Shown: positions 1 through 16,671 of the stretch, in pieces | Layout: each line of letters begins with the position of its first letter | How positions within the stretch are numbered: the first letter of the stretch is position 1 | Virus record (IMG/VR): IMGVR_UViG_3300045988_068193 | Origin: a virus | Strand: one strand, 5' to 3' | Length of the DNA stretch: 16,671 bases | The notes under the pieces: model-generated | Told to the model about the DNA's origin: nothing | Databases searched by the model: none | What the model saw: only the letters and a program-made list of their open reading frames with translations | Program-made: the position numbers and the translations under genes

Positions 1-38
1 CCCAGAGGTCCATGGTTCAAATCCATGCCCCGCTACCA
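1..38 (+). tRNA. 3' portion of a tRNA gene, probably tRNA-Met-like. The anticodon and 5' half lie left of the window.
   Basis: The visible parts are: CCCAG (anticodon-stem 3' strand with CCC, as in initiator-type tRNA-Met), AGGTC variable loop, T-arm CATGG-TTCAAAT-CCATG, acceptor 3' strand CCCCGCT, discriminator A and an encoded CCA ending at 38. The copy at attR has no matching 5' acceptor strand upstream, so the intact gene must be the one at attL. Confidence 0.6.
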
Positions 39-55
39 CTTGACCGTCGTTCCCA
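1..55 (+). repeat. attL: direct repeat identical to 16617..16671; its length is limited by the window edges
   Basis: Character-by-character identity of 1..55 with 16617..16671. The repeat contains a tRNA 3' end. Confidence 0.9.
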
Positions 56-366
56 TTATCGGAACGGCGGTTTTTTAATATCTGCTCGGCCTTCATCGGC
101 GTTAAATCGGTCCTTAGCAGCGTCTCAAGACCGACTCCGAAGAAATCGGCGGCGTTGCACATATCCTCAAAGAACCATGTTTGCTTGTTTTGAAGCATCT
201 TTGAGAGAGCCTGAGGTACTTTATCCATACACTCGGCCAGATCCTTCTTCTTCTTGCGAGATACCGCTAAGAGCAAATTAATGTTAGCGACAGCGATTTT
301 TTGCCGCTCTAGTCCAGTACTTGTTTTTCTAAGCATTGTGTTAACCATACCTTCATTATAAACCAT
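1..366 (-). CDS. cI-like XRE-family HTH repressor; the 3' end is open at the window edge and no stop codon is present
   Basis: I translated the minus frame by hand. It is open from 426 down to 1. The product reads MVYNEGMVNTMLRKTSTGLERQKIAVANINLLLAVSRKKKKDLAECMDKVPQALSKMLQNKQTWFFEDMCNAADFFGVGLETLLRTDLTPMKAEQILKNRRSDNGNDGQVVAGHGFEPWTSG... and has a typical HTH_3-like helix pattern. Possible starts are ATG 366, 348 or 336. ATG 348 lies 6 nt after a TATAAT (360..355), which is compatible with a leaderless mRNA. The gene is divergent from a cro-like gene and co-oriented with int. Confidence 0.7.
   Translation of the reverse strand, partial: MVYNEGMVNTMLRKTSTGLERQKIAVANINLLLAVSRKKKKDLAECMDKVPQALSKMLQNKQTWFFEDMCNAADFFGVGLETLLRTDLTPMKAEQILKNRRSDNGNDGQVVAGHGFEPWTSG
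44..76 (+). terminator. Rho-independent terminator of the tRNA gene
   Basis: A 10-bp stem pairs CCGTCGTTCC (44..53) with GGAACGGCGG (61..70), including one G-U pair. The loop is 7 nt and the stem is followed by TTTTTT (71..76). Confidence 0.6.
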
Positions 367-1975: not shown

Positions 1976-2412
1976 CGGCATCCGATAACTTCATAGCCCT
2001 TGACCCAGCCGAAGGTCGGTTGCTGGGGAGGCGTGATAAAGCACCCGGCCGCGCCTTGCCCAGCGCGTTACAAACACGCCCGGAATGCCGGGCGGTTACC
2101 ACGGCCCCAGCGGGGAGCTATGCGGGTGTAACAGATCGCTTCACGGCGTCTTGTTCGGGCGCAACTGGGGACCATCGCCGGCATGCGTGCCGGGCTGTAC
2201 AGCGAGACCTTGCGCGCGGCTTCGGCCGCTGACCTATGCGACGGCGCGGCTCCGTTACGAAGCAACCTTGCATGGCGAACCCTAACCCGGAAGACACTTG
2301 AGCGATCTTGTGTTTTCCGGCTTGGGTTCCCCGCTCTAACGCCCACCACCCGAAGGGCACATCATCCACAATCCTTATCCACTTATCCACAATATGAAAC
2401 GAGGTATGAGAC
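1976..2412. other. ORF-free, GC-rich, hairpin-dense intergenic spacer; candidate structured RNA and/or replication origin
   Basis: Only overlapping Arg/Pro-rich ORFs without SD sequences occur here, in several frames. Stable hairpins include 2004..2027, 2077..2094, 2178..2193, GCGGC-TTCG-GCCGC (2216..2229) and an extended stem at 2277..2329. Confidence 0.4.
2362..2391 (+). promoter_or_regulatory. Three tandem DnaA-box-like 9-mers
   Basis: TCATCCACA (2362..2370, 8/9), TTATCCACT (2375..2383, 8/9) and TTATCCACA (2383..2391, 9/9 to the TTATCCACA consensus). All are in the same orientation and end 21 nt upstream of the ATG at 2413. Confidence 0.55.
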
Positions 2413-2754
2413 ATGGGTTATTCGGTCGATTACAAGCCAACAAGCAGACGTGCCAAGAGGACGGTGCCGAAGAACAAGGCACAGCGCACGAAGGACATCA
2501 AGAACGCAATCCGTTGGAACATCGGGCAGTTGGAGCATGACACCATTGGCACCGACTCGGTACAGCGTCCCATGGTCATCGGCATTCTTCGGCTGAACCG
2601 CATCAGTCCGCACGCCGACCCGTCCGGCGATAACACCTTCCAGCAGCTGATCGCCGAGGGTTGGGTGCAGCGCCCGAAGCGTATCGGCGGCGTGCAGTGT
2701 TTCGACCGCGCAGACCTGATTAGATCGTTGAAGGCTTATGCGGGGGTGGCGTGA
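2413..2754 (+). CDS. Hypothetical basic protein (113 aa)
   Basis: A GAGG SD lies 8 nt upstream. The N-terminus is Lys/Arg-rich. The ORF is coupled to the next ORF through a TGATG overlap. Confidence 0.6.
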   Translation: MGYSVDYKPTSRRAKRTVPKNKAQRTKDIKNAIRWNIGQLEHDTIGTDSVQRPMVIGILRLNRISPHADPSGDNTFQQLIAEGWVQRPKRIGGVQCFDRADLIRSLKAYAGVA

Positions 2755-2945
2755 TGAATCCAAGGGCGAAACTGACCACGGCGCAGGCCGCACGGTACCT
2801 GCATAAGTCACAACGGCAGATGGAACGCATGAGGGCGGACGGCACCGGGCCGACGTGGTTCAAAGCGGGCGACGCGATCAACAGTCCGTGCCTGTACGAG
2901 CTGGCCGACCTTGACATGTGGGTGCGTGGGCAGAAGGCGAAGTGA
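2751..2945 (+). CDS. Excisionase/AlpA/MerR-type HTH DNA-binding protein (Xis-like)
   Basis: The product contains LTTAQAARYLHKSQRQMERMRADGTGPTWFKAGD....YELADLDMWV, matching the short excisionase-family HTH_17 pattern. The likely start is the ATG at 2754. Confidence 0.6.
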   Translation: MMNPRAKLTTAQAARYLHKSQRQMERMRADGTGPTWFKAGDAINSPCLYELADLDMWVRGQKAK

Positions 2946-2946
2946 G

Positions 2947-3666
2947 ATGGGGCGCAGGCAGACGATAGACCCGCTGGTGCGGGCGAAGGTCATCGACACA
3001 TGGGGCAACGATTGTTGGCTTGGATTGCCGGGCTGTACCAAGGTCGGCGCCGAGGACGACCATATCGTGCCCTACTCGCATGGCGGCATGGACACCGTGG
3101 CGAACATACGCCGCGCGTGCAAGCACTGCAACGCATCAAGGCAAGACCGCGTCTTGTACGGCTATGGGGCGCGGTTGCACATGGTGATAGTACCGCCAGG
3201 TTCCTGCGACCGTGAGGCCGTGGACTATATCGACGCGCATAAAGCGCCGGGCGACCCGGTGGTGTCGTTCAGCACGTTGGCCACGGCCATGGGCCTGACC
3301 AATCCCAGTCTTGCGTGCAGGCGCGCGGTGGCCATGGCATGGTCGGGCGCGTACCGGCAGTTCGCCACGTCGGCCGAGCCTATCGACGTGTGGCTGACCC
3401 GCACCACCATCAGCAGCAACCGGCATCCTCGGCTGTTGGACGAGTGGATAGCGTTGGACTATGACGTGCAGGTGATAGACCCCGGCTTCGCCGTCGAGTG
3501 GGAGCGCGCGAGGGACGACGCGACCCGACGTCGCGTCAGGCAATGGTACGCGCTGCACTTATCGCAGGCGTTGGTGGACGCGAGGCGTGCCGAACGGCGC
3601 GCGAAGCTCGTTGCCCTTGGCCTTCGCTCCGAGCCGGTGCAGATCGCTTCGCGGCCGAAGTGGTGA
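2947..3666 (+). CDS. HNH endonuclease with a ~170-aa C-terminal extension
   Basis: The HNH motif is CW.G.PGC....EDDHIVPYSHGG.DTVANIRRACKHCNASR. The ATG at 2947 follows the xis-like stop. The gene sits directly upstream of the terminase genes, as in HK97-like cos phages. Confidence 0.8.
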   Translation: MGRRQTIDPLVRAKVIDTWGNDCWLGLPGCTKVGAEDDHIVPYSHGGMDTVANIRRACKHCNASRQDRVLYGYGARLHMVIVPPGSCDREAVDYIDAHKAPGDPVVSFSTLATAMGLTNPSLACRRAVAMAWSGAYRQFATSAEPIDVWLTRTTISSNRHPRLLDEWIALDYDVQVIDPGFAVEWERARDDATRRRVRQWYALHLSQALVDARRAERRAKLVALGLRSEPVQIASRPKW

Positions 3667-3827
3667 GCCTGTTTTTTAAACACGCGGCCGGCCAAAAGAC
3701 CCCGCGCCCAGTTTTTTCTCCCCCTGAACATAAATAAAAAGCCGCAAAACGTTGGAATACCAACGAAATGCGGCGTATCGCTTTCAAAAAACGAAGATAC
3801 ACCATGTTTGTGATTGGAGCAACCGTT

Positions 3828-6789: not shown

Positions 6790-8347
6790 AATAGGGTTCA
6801 GGGGCGTGTGCCTGCGCTCGGCCGACGACGGCGACGGGCGCACCTTGGAAGGCGTGGCCGTGCCATATGGGCAGATCATCGACACATGGGACGGTGCCGA
6901 GACCTTCGACCCTGACTGCCGCTTCGACGACATCGAATCCGCGAAGCTGTGCTACCAGCACGGCGAACTGATCGGCCGCATCACCGCCGCCGAATCACGG
7001 GAAGACGGCCTGCACATCACCGCCAGGATAAGCGACACGCAGCTTGGCCGCGACGTGGTGAACCTCTTGAAGGACGGCGCTCTGGACTCATTGTCGGTGG
7101 GATTCGTCCCGATCGAGGACGAACGCGACAAGGCCGGGATAACCCATCGCAGGCGCGTCAGGCTGTTGGAAACAAGCGTGGTGAGCTGGCCCGCATACGA
7201 GGCCGCGAAAATCACCGGACAGCGAAGCGAGACCCTGACCGAAGAACCAACCGACAACAAGGAAAGCGAGGACACGAAAGTGGACAAGGAACTGGAAGAG
7301 ACGCTGGACGCCATCAAGGACGAACAGCGCAGTTTGAAGGCCGCGTTGGCCAAGGGCGGCACCACCGAACCGCCGAAACAGATCGGCAGCGAGTACCGCA
7401 CCGCCGGCGACTACCTGCAGGCGCTCTATCGCGGCGACGAAACGGCGGTGCAGTTGATGCACGAATGCCGCGACCTGATCGCCACGGGCGACACCGGCAA
7501 CAAGGTGGCATGGATTGCGGATGAACTGCGCCTGATCGAACAGCGGCGCAAGGTCACCAACCTGCTGACCCACGACACGCTGCCAGACAAGGGCATGACC
7601 ATGGAATACAACGTGGTCAGCACCGACACCACCACGGTGGGCAAGCAGGCCGGCGAGGGCGACGCGCTCCAGTTCGGCAAGGTGACCTTCGGCACCAAGA
7701 GCGTGACCATCGACACCTACGGCGGCTACACCACCCTGTCGCGTCAGGTGATCGAACGCTCGACCACGCCAATGCTGAACACGGCTCTTGCCGCCCTGCG
7801 CAACGCCTACGCGAAGGCCACCGAAACGGCCGTGCGCACCTACCTGTACGACACCATCGCCGCACAGCGCGACGCATCGACCGACGCGAACAAGATCGAC
7901 GCGCCGGCCGCGTTGGCCGCAATGACCATCGACCAGTGGGCCGGCCTCATCATGGACGCCGCCGAGTTGGCCGACGACCGTAACGTGAACCTCACCCGCT
8001 TGGGAGTCAGCAAGGATGTCATGGCCGCCCTGATCGCCCTGAAGGACTCGGGCAGTCGTTTCTTCGACCTGTCCGGCGACGGTAGCGATACGTTGGGCGA
8101 CTTCGATTTGACCGGCATCGCCGGCCGTTTCCTGCGCCTTCCCGTGCAGATGCTGCCCAACGCGCCCGAAGGCACCGCGTGCTTCATCGACCCCGAGTCG
8201 GTGACCGTGTGGGAATCGGGCGGCCCGACCCAGCTCAGCGACGGCGACCCGACCAAGCTCACCGAAAACTATTCAGTGTACGGATACCTGGCCGTGGCGG
8301 CAACACAGCCGCTCGGTCTTATCCCCGTCAAGTTCGCCACGGCCTGA
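6779..8347 (+). CDS. Prohead protease - scaffold-like linker - HK97-type major capsid protein, as a single fused ORF
   Basis: The N-terminal ~150 aa resemble an HK97 prohead protease (LEGVAVPYG...H.....G.......DSLSVGF....). An acidic coiled-coil linker follows (EEPTDNKESEDTKVDKELEETLDAIKDEQRSLKAAL). The ~320-aa C-terminal region is capsid-like. A GAAGGGAG SD precedes the ATG at 6779. Confidence 0.8.
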   Translation: MKREIGFRGVCLRSADDGDGRTLEGVAVPYGQIIDTWDGAETFDPDCRFDDIESAKLCYQHGELIGRITAAESREDGLHITARISDTQLGRDVVNLLKDGALDSLSVGFVPIEDERDKAGITHRRRVRLLETSVVSWPAYEAAKITGQRSETLTEEPTDNKESEDTKVDKELEETLDAIKDEQRSLKAALAKGGTTEPPKQIGSEYRTAGDYLQALYRGDETAVQLMHECRDLIATGDTGNKVAWIADELRLIEQRRKVTNLLTHDTLPDKGMTMEYNVVSTDTTTVGKQAGEGDALQFGKVTFGTKSVTIDTYGGYTTLSRQVIERSTTPMLNTALAALRNAYAKATETAVRTYLYDTIAAQRDASTDANKIDAPAALAAMTIDQWAGLIMDAAELADDRNVNLTRLGVSKDVMAALIALKDSGSRFFDLSGDGSDTLGDFDLTGIAGRFLRLPVQMLPNAPEGTACFIDPESVTVWESGGPTQLSDGDPTKLTENYSVYGYLAVAATQPLGLIPVKFATA

Positions 8348-15701: not shown

Positions 15702-16525
15702 ATAAGACGGACGGCCGCCATGGCTTCTCTCAGACGGCCGTCCGGCATCGCCACGTAATGCTCCGTGGTCTCAACCGATTCATGGCCGAGCAGTTCCGCG
15801 ACCACGAACAGGTCGTGTGTGGCGGCGTATGCCGTGGTGGCAAAACGGTGCCGCAACGTGTGCGCGGCGTACCCGTCCGGCAGCAGGCGGCTGATGTGGT
15901 CCCCGATATAGGACTCCTCGACGTGGCCGCCGAACCGGCCAGGGAACAGGTAGCCCCGCGCGTCCATGATGATGCCGGCCAGATCGTCCGGCAACGGCAC
16001 TATGCGCTGCTTGTCGCCTTTGCCGCGCACGATCAATGACCGGCCGGCGCTGTCTGCCACCACGTCATCGCTGTGAACCCGCGCAATCTCGCCACGCCGC
16101 AGTCCGCACTCCGCGCCCAGCCGGATCATGAGTCTTTCCGACGTCGTGGCCATCTTCATCGCCGCAGCGATGTAACGGTCCGGGCATGGTCTGGGATGCG
16201 CGTGCGGCTTCTTCACCCTTGGCACGTCCAGACTCGGATCATCCGACCGTCTGCCGCTTTTATGCAGCCATCGGAAGAACGACGATATGGTGTTCCTGTA
16301 CGCTTTGCGCGTCTCGGGTTTCCATTGCTGCCGTGCGAACGCCTGCACGATCTGCTCCGTGGTCACGTCTTCGGGACCTGATGGCATGAGCAATGTCGCG
16401 AGATGCACCATCTTGTATCGACGGCTTTTGATTGTCTGTGCTGATAGGCCGGCCGCCCTAAGGGTGTCAGTCCACCCGTTGATGCTTTTGCGCCATGGGA
16501 CCGGTGCGCTGATCTTGTTTCTCAT
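15698..16525 (-). CDS. int: Tyrosine recombinase / phage integrase
   Basis: The 275-aa product has an N-terminal SAM-like core-binding domain. Catalytic signatures are LRRGEIARV (Arg), HTLRHRFAT (H-x-x-R) and LLGHESVETTEHY (His...Tyr). It is adjacent to attR. Confidence 0.9.
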   Translation of the reverse strand: MRNKISAPVPWRKSINGWTDTLRAAGLSAQTIKSRRYKMVHLATLLMPSGPEDVTTEQIVQAFARQQWKPETRKAYRNTISSFFRWLHKSGRRSDDPSLDVPRVKKPHAHPRPCPDRYIAAAMKMATTSERLMIRLGAECGLRRGEIARVHSDDVVADSAGRSLIVRGKGDKQRIVPLPDDLAGIIMDARGYLFPGRFGGHVEESYIGDHISRLLPDGYAAHTLRHRFATTAYAATHDLFVVAELLGHESVETTEHYVAMPDGRLREAMAAVRLI

Positions 16526-16560
16526 GATTCATCATGCACCCCTAGCTTTAAGCGACTAAA

Positions 16561-16580
16561 CTGAGCTTGGATAAGCTCAG
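16561..16580. repeat. Perfect 8-bp stem / 4-nt loop hairpin between int and attR
   Basis: CTGAGCTT-GGAT-AAGCTCAG, read directly. Confidence 0.7.
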
Positions 16581-16586
16581 AAGCCC

Positions 16587-16643
16587 CATGGATTTGAACC
16601 TTGGACCTCTGGTGTCCCCAGAGGTCCATGGTTCAAATCCATG
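16587..16643. repeat. 57-nt palindrome: a phage-side inverted copy of the att core / tRNA T-arm facing attR
   Basis: 16587..16612 pairs with 16618..16643 at 25 of 26 positions (the single mismatch is 16601/16629). The spacer is 5 nt, TGTCC. Confidence 0.85.
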
Positions 16644-16671
16644 CCCCGCTACCACTTGACCGTCGTTCCCA
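16617..16671 (+). repeat. attR: direct repeat identical to 1..55, carrying a displaced tRNA 3' fragment
   Basis: It is identical to 1..55. The sequence upstream lacks the AGCGGGG-type 5' acceptor strand, so this copy is not a full tRNA gene. Confidence 0.9.

Follow-up and report, generated by a model that had tools for sequence, protein, structure and literature searches.

How does a tailed phage that carries no recognisable replication gene begin to copy its DNA, and what do three sequences resembling sites for the host initiator protein DnaA do immediately ahead of its late genes? These questions are raised by IMG/VR virus record IMGVR_UViG_3300045988_068193, a stretch of 16,671 nucleotides (the window throughout this text), whose sequence indicates a complete ~16.6-kb integrase-bearing Bifidobacterium siphovirus, either bounded by attL and attR or assembled from a circular form. 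An initial annotation had proposed that a cluster of DnaA boxes recruits host DnaA to a phage origin. In our analysis, the three 9-mers are most likely genuine, selectively maintained host DnaA sites at which binding is predicted, and they lie directly after a large structured RNA. As to their function, we tentatively prefer an accessory docking site, one that would assist replication in starting in association with the RNA and without a phage initiator.

The boxes were scored against the consensus TTATNCACA / TT[A/T]TNCACA, and the window holds the following matches:

2362..2370, + strand: DnaA box 1, TCATCCACA, matching eight of nine positions; the first unit of nearly all arrays of the window type.
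2375..2383, + strand: DnaA box 2, TTATCCACT, eight of nine; an 8-nt-phased unit.
2383..2391, + strand: DnaA box 3, TTATCCACA, nine of nine.
221..229, + strand: a solitary box, TTATCCATA, eight of nine, inside the cI-like gene and within chance expectation.

One perfect and two 8/9 9-mers in the same orientation are thus found exactly where the initial annotation had placed them, at 2362-2391. They run head-to-tail within 30 bp, with start-to-start distances of 13 and 8 bp; boxes 2 and 3 share one T and together form a TTATCCAC-TTATCCACA pair. The total number of boxes with at most one mismatch is unremarkable (4 observed in the whole window vs 1.59 expected). Clustering is rare by chance: among 3000 first-order Markov simulations of the window, two same-strand boxes fell within 30 bp in 5 and three in 0. 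This result, together with the retention of the cluster in related elements, sustains the earlier judgement that three adjacent boxes are unlikely to be accidental. TTATCCACA (‘type A’) and TTACCCACA are box types annotated in the oriC of B. longum, where the consensus used is that applied here (PMC2430713). Outside the array, the 7-mer TTATCCA occurs only at 221-229 (+) and 16568-16574 (-), both within ~170 bp of the attachment (att) core; the latter copy sits inside the palindrome gagcttggataagctc. This placement could be accidental or could mark a recombination-directionality site.

Arrays of two to six copies recur in dozens of related elements; the L135, L007 and L027/L242 types, for example, carry two, four and six boxes, respectively. 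Those of the main human-gut lineage are composed of 8-nt TTATCCAC and 13-nt TTATCCACA[A/G]TTC units, an arrangement prone to slippage, and near-identical phages differ by whole 8- or 13-nt units, which marks the stretch as non-coding. The probability of a perfect TTATCCACA arising by chance in a 13-nt unit is ~1e-4. On a tree of gp113, the protein encoded immediately downstream, the box-bearing branches are the outgroup L189 and the clades of L135, the window and L004, interspersed with box-less clades, and the spacer around the boxes is unalignable between the L189, L135, window and L004 lineages. Such a distribution does not look like that of a young lineage-specific duplication. The L189 units (TTTTCCACA, TTGTCCAC, TTATCCAC and TTATCCACA) all fall within TT[A/G/T]TCCACA, their variation being limited to a position that DnaA boxes tolerate. 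The orientation of the array is constant, and it always stands just 5' of the Shine-Dalgarno (SD) sequence.

The same tandem pair occurs in other elements. An exact-match scan of viral contigs for TTATCCACTTATCCAC returned at least 120 stretches and, among the matches listed, 23/120 belong to this phage family. Many other listed stretches lie in phage-plasmid-like contigs in which the pair adjoins GATC-rich repeats; for one contig type, matching ~110-kb Klebsiella plasmid records put a RepFIB/RepB-family initiator gene there. The RepFIB/RepB-family origins of such plasmid-prophages, which we take to be of the P1 oriR type, have the identical 8-bp-phased TTATCCACTTATCCAC in direct orientation, but they combine it with GATC-rich repeats and a Rep gene, whereas the window has no Rep, iterons or GATC cluster. 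In several phage contigs, some low and some high in guanine plus cytosine (GC), the pair precedes a short GC cluster and then trio-like repeats, 4-7 in number (e.g., CTACTACTACTAG), as is typical of an oriC-type unwinding module, and trio-like runs follow it in L132, L139, L143, L166, L208 and L218. Its position beside initiator genes or trio-like repeats identifies the 8-bp-phased pair as a recurrent natural DnaA module. The pair, a GC cluster and CTACTACTAC-type trios were also noted in the high-GC IMG/VR contigs L139 (~12710), L143 (~5450), L213 (~260), L238 (~7090) and L239 (~6630), where they look like oriC-like unwinding modules in actinobacterial phage contigs. Searches of GenBank phages with two viral contigs that carry the pair, L123 (megablast) and the high-GC L139 (blastn), gave no match.

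Two DNA-binding proteins are encoded next to the array and had to be considered as its cognate binders:

2413..2754, + strand: gp113, 113 amino acids, with a basic disordered N-terminus, a long helix and a winged-helix domain; its family is confined to these phages.
2751..2945, + strand: gp64, an HTH_17 protein (MerR/excisionase-like), by profile match.

Neither covaries with the repeats, and both were rejected in this role. The gp64 type does not track the repeat type: that of the window is common to L037, whose repeat is ATCAATC, and among other box-bearing phages L004 has a different type and L002 none. The recognition helix and wing of gp113 are common to lineages with four, two and no boxes. 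For the same reason, the suggestion in the initial annotation that a phage regulator happens to share the ATCCAC core is disfavoured. Since no adjacent phage DNA-binding protein covaries, the binder is most simply a host factor, and no factor other than DnaA is known to recognise this sequence. Deep retention of the boxes, combined with the presence of the same pair beside initiator genes or trio-like repeats elsewhere, makes binding of host DnaA the most likely reading.

The initial annotation had overlooked that the 437-bp ‘intergenic’ region is largely a covarying RNA of ~380 nt, with the boxes in the spacer between its 3' end and a ribosome-binding site (RBS). The gap is organised as follows:

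1981..2357, + strand: conserved structured RNA, ~380 nt; leader of the late operon, with covariation and no Rfam family.
1984..1989, + strand: GATAAC (NATAAY motif) at the RNA 5' edge in all lineages; a candidate -10 element.
2051..2076, + strand: invariant block GCGCCTTGCCCAGCGCGTTACAAACA, a hairpin loop and linker, identical in all window-type and most divergent sequences.
2345..2348, + strand: (A/U)CCA directly 3' of the last long-range helix, where the RNA domain probably ends.
2358..2398, + strand: hypervariable G-poor spacer with the box array; 8- and 13-nt indels and replacement of whole repeat types between relatives.
2399..2404, + strand: SD-like ACGAGG of the first gene after the RNA; kept in most leaders.

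An alignment of the gap from 35 relatives displays long invariant blocks and compensatory changes, and an exact-match scan found GCGCCTTGCCCAGCGCGTTACAAACA in the genomes of four Bifidobacterium species. With 15 sequences, RNAalifold predicted 81 pairs on the + strand (22 with double changes) and 68 on the - strand (13 with double changes), and many switches from G-C or A-U to G-U fit the + strand alone. An RNA on the minus strand was rejected because its structure and covariation are weaker and many of the G-U pairs would turn into C-A. In 16 more diverse sequences, 59 pairs were predicted, at which 93% of positions are paired, vs ~45% when partners are slid by 1-3 columns; 29/59 show compensatory changes. 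The covariation score was 0.368 vs ~0.08 in the control, and 0/500 shuffles reached the observed values. Rfam gave no match at its gathering thresholds (best E-value 0.18, at 20 bits vs a 70-bit cut-off), and ARAGORN reported neither a tRNA nor a tmRNA, also when its threshold was lowered to 80% in the window; relaxed thresholds produced inconsistent noise. The RNA appears to constitute a new family and to be the more surprising object of the locus. A divergent form sharing the 3' half was found in relatives at first judged RNA-less, which makes the RNA near-universal in related 15-17-kb Bifidobacterium phages.

At the 5' edge of the RNA, GATAAC has no recognisable -35 partner, and a simple promoter scan called none. 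ACCA or TCCA stands at the 3' edge in every lineage, L099 type included, and may take part in 3' processing. The array fills the only free spacer between this ACCA end and the RBS of gp113. The promoter and terminator scan predicted neither element in the spacer, and L020-type and L099-type relatives could hardly fit a promoter there, their spacer being too short or lacking features; the boxes are therefore most likely transcribed within a long leader.

Several other interpretations of the gap were examined and rejected. Protein coding within 1976-2412 (ORFs, that is, open reading frames, at 2118-2414 on the - strand and 2183-2596 on the + strand) is contradicted by 1-, 8- and 13-nt indels and by compensatory substitutions in helices. 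A promoter formed by the boxes themselves (TCCACA-17-CACAAT) has a spacing that fits the window but not arrays made of 13-nt units alone, and the scan called none. Pairing of UUAUCCAC with the leader (e.g., GUGAUAA at 2035-2041) is not kept in box-bearing L001, and inspection of the alignment revealed no complementary RNA partner of UUAUCCAC that covaries across lineages. A cos or terminase site is unsuitable, given that the boxes lie 1.4 kb upstream of the TerS gene and that 3667-3767 is a better cos candidate by synteny. Operators for cI or Cro were also discarded, as the immunity region has a different palindrome (AACCATAGGTT, in the cI/Cro intergenic region).

The absence of replication genes noted in the initial annotation holds. 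Scans against Pfam, PHROGs and NCBIfam found no initiator, helicase, loader, primase or polymerase family in any ORF, and returned only structural, packaging, lysis, integrase and helix-turn-helix (HTH) functions; specifically, no window ORF is a Rep or O initiator. A relative integrated in a host contig (L242) passes directly from host atp and HTS genes to a cI-like and a Cro-like gene; next come an ORF of 52 aa and the gap, and then the late genes begin. Its early region comprises no more than three or four tiny genes, namely the cI-like, Cro-like and tiny ORFs. Because the early region of this integrated relative is so small, the lack of replication genes is real and not an artefact of how the window was cut.

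A comparison with cultured phages provides a positional clue. The hosts of these elements are bifidobacteria, and their nearest cultured kin, with 33-34% identity over the capsid fusion, belong to Microbacterium cluster EE (~17 kb) or are represented by Curtobacterium phage Barebow. The EE phages have been described as lacking most non-structural genes, and the published account of them is silent on replication (PMC7302621). Barebow, a temperate phage, has the gene order of the window: repressor, Cro-like gene, slot, small ORFs, HTH gene, HNH gene and genome end. Its slot is gp21, a 256-aa protein (L245 1969-2739) annotated as hypothetical, which matches replication-initiation, lambda-O-like and DnaD-like PHROG families (E = 2e-12 to 2e-7) and whose gene holds five 15-bp iterons (CCGTCCACGGAAnnn) at 2424-2505. 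The gp21 gene with its internal iterons is a lambda-type origin. The RNA and spacer of the window occupy the slot of the Barebow initiator and iterons, a position that favours a link to replication. The slot is the same, from the Cro-like gene to the small-ORF / HTH / HNH / cos block, but in place of a lambda O-type initiator gene the window has an RNA gene and host-factor sites.

In the Microbacterium EE phages, the slot is an unannotated gap of 640-770 bp (Noelani, L244 15772-16538; BonaeVitae, L246 1772-2409, or 15771-16408 of the record). These gaps share short motifs with the Bifidobacterium RNA by eye (GCGATAACCGAATA, GGCTCCG, TTCACCA / TTTCCACCA), and a covariance model of the RNA 3' domain gave weak matches at the expected place and strand (E = 0.064 and 0.67). 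An nhmmer comparison of the Microbacterium EE gap and the Bifidobacterium RNA found no match, and homology of the RNA with the EE gaps is unproven. In Noelani, an unannotated ORF probably starts near 16285; CCCCACA repeats stand at a position similar to that of the array, and caATCCCCACAATCCC, which resembles the first unit of the window array, lies upstream of the MerR-like gene.

The array is not an oriC-type origin that DnaA opens alone. DnaA-trios were sought as at least three NAN repeats a few bp past the proximal box with a GC cluster before them. The sequence after the last box is ATATGAAACGAGGTATGAGACATG, and the longest strict trio run in the window is 2; across 59 family arrays it is at most 3 and mostly 1, and in several unrelated contigs that have the same pair it is 4-7. 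The upstream flank is the RNA gene, with 61-66% GC, and the downstream flank is an RBS and ORF, the 40 nt beyond the boxes being 60% adenine plus thymine (AT) and holding the start codon as well as the RBS. Nowhere in the element is GC lower than in the cI/Cro intergenic region (275-430). Like the basal unwinding system of oriC, the window has tandem consensus boxes in one orientation; it differs in having no trios, GC cluster or DNA unwinding element. A self-sufficient origin, in which a DnaA oligomer on the three boxes would melt adjacent DNA, is suggested by the tandem same-orientation consensus boxes, the lack of a phage initiator and a local GC minimum of 0.30-0.38. With neither trios nor a GC cluster following the pair, in contrast to several other pair-bearing phage contigs, with a GC-rich RNA gene and an RBS plus ORF as flanks, with the cluster absent in many relatives and no skew support, it is the least credible of the explanations considered and highly improbable. 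Nor does the window have iterons matched to a cognate adjacent protein, since covariation with the repeats is absent for both gp113 and gp64.

A closer parallel is offered by the ColE1/pBR322 plasmids, in which structured RNA II is followed by a DnaA box, no initiator is encoded, and the box, although dispensable, helps helicase loading. The window has the same layout, with no encoded initiator, a structured and presumably transcribed RNA at 1981-2357, and boxes from 2362. The resemblance thus comprises the lack of an own initiator, a long structured RNA running toward the site, one or more boxes just past the RNA 3' end, and a box that is helpful but dispensable. In the reading that we tentatively adopt, the array is an accessory docking site: it would concentrate host DnaA just where the leader-RNA gene ends, and docked DnaA would bring the host helicase to a replication start that depends on the leader RNA, or on transcription of or through it. 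The individual steps, namely DnaA binding, RNA priming or opening, and helicase loading, we infer; what the sequences establish are the boxes with their pattern of conservation, the RNA, the lack of replication genes and the synteny. That many relatives replicate without boxes makes the box function an accessory one. Accordingly, the original proposal survives in part: the boxes are non-random, maintained, best read as DnaA boxes and located in the slot of a replication module, while an origin driven by DnaA is not borne out, there being no trios, GC cluster, convincing unwinding element, Rep, iterons or skew inflection, and sister lineages being box-less.

A bolder version takes the RNA and array together as an initiator-less, RNA-dependent origin (ColE1-like or transcript-primed) of the minimal 15-18-kb actinobacterial siphoviruses. 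The processed, ACCA-ended RNA, or its transcription, would then provide the primer or the opening, and host DnaA would load the helicase. We regard this as quite unlikely; if true, it would explain replication without replication genes, possibly also in the cultured Microbacterium cluster-EE phages.

A number of observations weigh against the docking-site reading. At the boxes, the window lacks both DnaA-trios and a GC cluster, nor is there a strong AT-rich unwinding element; the local GC minimum (0.30-0.38 in 30-60-bp windows) has its 60-bp low point at 2362, that is, at the boxes themselves. Cumulative GC skew is lowest at the window ends and peaks at 7359, and 2.36 kb shows no feature, a null that is weak evidence in a phage transcribed almost wholly from one strand. 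With respect to the RNA, the boxes point the other way from the box of pBR322. GC skew across the RNA is 0.005 to -0.088, and its 3' part, rich in C and poor in G, speaks against a stable R-loop. A box cluster is missing altogether from about 19 related 15-17-kb phages, and the sister lineages L021, L020, L037, L039, L040, L049, L053, L056 and the L099 type are box-less. In the same spacer, the leaders of L037, L039 and L041 have ATCAATC three times and those of L021, L032 and L035 have ACAGACCRACTC twice, while L020 has CA-rich runs and the L099 type almost no spacer and no array. Box-less lineages with other G-poor repeats (ATCAATC, ACAGACC) suggest that the spacer may act at the RNA level, independently of sequence. 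The last box ends 7 nt before ACGAGG, probably within the transcribed leader, a position that suits a regulatory site equally well, and the synteny argument rests on one phage, Barebow. Further differences from ColE1/pBR322 are that the window has no detected antisense RNA I (no minus-strand promoter was called in the region, which has one terminator-like hairpin at 2094-2077), that its RNA 3' region is C-rich and not R-loop-prone, that the RNA appears to run on into mRNA, and that several boxes are present instead of one, in a tailed phage instead of a plasmid.

Some of these points bear directly on rival explanations. If the boxes are bound by DnaA but serve transcription, an oligomer in the leader, 22-50 bp 5' of the gp113 start, would block or modulate the entry of RNA polymerase into the late operon, and late expression would be tied to host DnaA status or to titration of DnaA by accumulating phage copies. 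This possibility, one of the two main rivals and, although doubtful, a live one, was also raised in the initial annotation. It draws on the placement of the array in a leader where neither a promoter nor a terminator was detected, on the L020- and L099-type spacers that suggest transcription through the RNA, on the constant orientation just before the SD sequence, and on a copy number that differs among near-identical phages, as would be expected of a tunable regulatory element. DnaA is established as a repressor or roadblock at boxes inside chromosomal transcription units. A non-origin role of DnaA boxes has also been proposed for the T5 injection-stop region (bioRxiv 10.1101/866236). Nevertheless, relatives regulate the same operon without boxes, the same pair in mobile elements is mostly found beside initiator genes or origin-like repeats, and a roadblock would be ineffective if the leader RNA made polymerase termination-resistant.

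It is also conceivable, though unlikely, that DnaA plays no part and that the spacer is an incidental product of slippage, a G-poor unstructured 5' untranslated region whose identity with DnaA boxes is coincidental or tolerated. Under this second main rival, the stretch would act as a standby site for ribosomes, as an enhancer, or as a Rho-loading (rut-like) site, and would part the stable RNA fold from the RBS. Every lineage is G-poor there, often with repeats of its own (ATCAATC x3, ACAGACCRACTC x2, CA-rich), and the L099 type has almost no spacer; 8- and 13-nt indels separate otherwise near-identical elements; and the CCCCACA repeats of Noelani, with caATCCCCACAATCCC upstream of its MerR-like gene, are compatible with such a role, as are the conserved start-associated sequences of unknown function described in actinophages (PMC7302621). 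This explanation has to contend with the ~1e-4 chance of a perfect TTATCCACA in a 13-nt unit, the retention of the pair where the remaining spacer has fully diverged, the L189 variants that stay valid boxes, and the want of a covarying RNA partner for UUAUCCAC on inspection of the alignment. Very unlikely, in turn, is a phage-protein operator, with cooperative sites in the style of Cox, Apl or Xis through which gp113 or gp64 would control its own operon and might have a further role at att. Tandem direct repeats do adjoin winged-helix and HTH_17 genes, and the TTATCCA 7-mers outside the array (221, 16574) lie within ~170 bp of the att core; however, neither the gp64 type nor the gp113 recognition helix and wing covaries with the repeats, as Cox/Apl/Xis-type sites would require, and the cI/Cro intergenic palindrome AACCATAGGTT differs from them.

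The docking-site reading may also be set against other known systems. DnaA clusters outside origins (chromosomal regulon sites and the proposed T5 boxes, the latter also in a phage) resemble the array in having consensus boxes in or next to transcription units; the window differs in that its boxes form a compact array of variable copy number, which immediately follows a structured RNA within a 5' leader. Cis-acting leader RNAs of phages (HK022 put and the processed P4 CI / P1 C4 RNAs) are likewise structured RNAs heading a long phage operon, and the conserved NCCA after a helix recalls phage RNAs processed by RNase P; the window RNA is 5-6 times larger, shows no sequence or Rfam similarity to these RNAs, and shows no covarying repeated antisense target. 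Origins of plasmids and phage-plasmids are thus already known to carry DnaA boxes, as are chromosomal regulatory sites and, by proposal, the T5 injection-stop region. The new variant here is a variable-copy DnaA-box array that directly abuts a large undescribed structured RNA in the late-operon leader of a tailed phage without replication genes.

The remaining features complete the description of the element:

1..55, + strand, identical to 16617-16671: 55-bp repeat; either a tRNA 3' end forming the att core, or a terminal repeat due to circular assembly.
~1-367, - strand: cI-like HTH ORF, reaching the left window end without a stop codon.
433-669: Cro-like HTH gene.
745-1356, - strand: 203-aa orphan without a Pfam, PHROG, NCBIfam or PDB match.
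2911..3666, + strand: HNH endonuclease, packaging-associated, by profile match.
3667-3767: low-GC (33-39%) 100-bp gap between HNH and the putative small terminase gene; likely cos by HK97-type synteny.

The identical 55-bp repeat at both ends identifies the window as the whole element. A hairpin with a T-run at 42-72 resembles a tRNA terminator, and to the left of the right 55-bp copy lies its inverted complement (ccatggatttgaaccttggacctctgg / ccagaggtccatggttcaaatccatgg), a region (16559-16654) that ARAGORN labels as an odd 96-nt ‘tRNA-Gln’. The cI-like ORF reads across the terminator hairpin and the att core; as it has no stop before the window end, its C-terminus depends on the integrated or circular state. 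The 203-aa orphan is absent from the minimal integrated relative L242, which marks it as an accessory cargo gene, possibly with a role in exclusion or defence; three tiny ORFs follow it, and then the 437-bp gap (1976-2412). No Pfam, PHROG or NCBIfam family matches gp113, and 109/109 of its homologues are unnamed or hypothetical; its AlphaFold2 (AF2) model has a predicted local distance difference test (pLDDT) score of 82, with weak winged-helix structural matches. Residues 1-45 of gp113 (2413-2547), with the Arg/Lys-rich RRAKRTVPKNKAQRTKDIKNAIRW, are nearly invariant in most lineages, while the winged-helix part is variable. This N-terminus resembles arginine-rich RNA-binding motifs, which makes the conserved upstream RNA a candidate ligand. 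An IscB-like, RNA-guided reading of the HNH protein was rejected, the match being limited to the HNH motif (25.7 bits vs a 175-bit cut-off). Downstream genes encode a probable small terminase, large terminase, portal, protease-capsid fusion, tail proteins, holin, lysin and tyrosine integrase.

How the smallest tailed phages replicate (15-18 kb, with a protease-capsid fusion and almost no non-structural genes) is unexplained. The locus described here offers two handles on this problem, a conserved array of host-initiator sites and an undescribed, strongly covarying 380-nt RNA that may also occur in cultured Microbacterium phages; they occupy the slot that an initiator and iterons fill in a relative. 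Should DnaA docking work together with the RNA in replication or in the timing of late genes, this would be a new viral use of the host initiator. Since these elements are abundant prophages of human-gut bifidobacteria, the question also bears on prophage induction in an important commensal.

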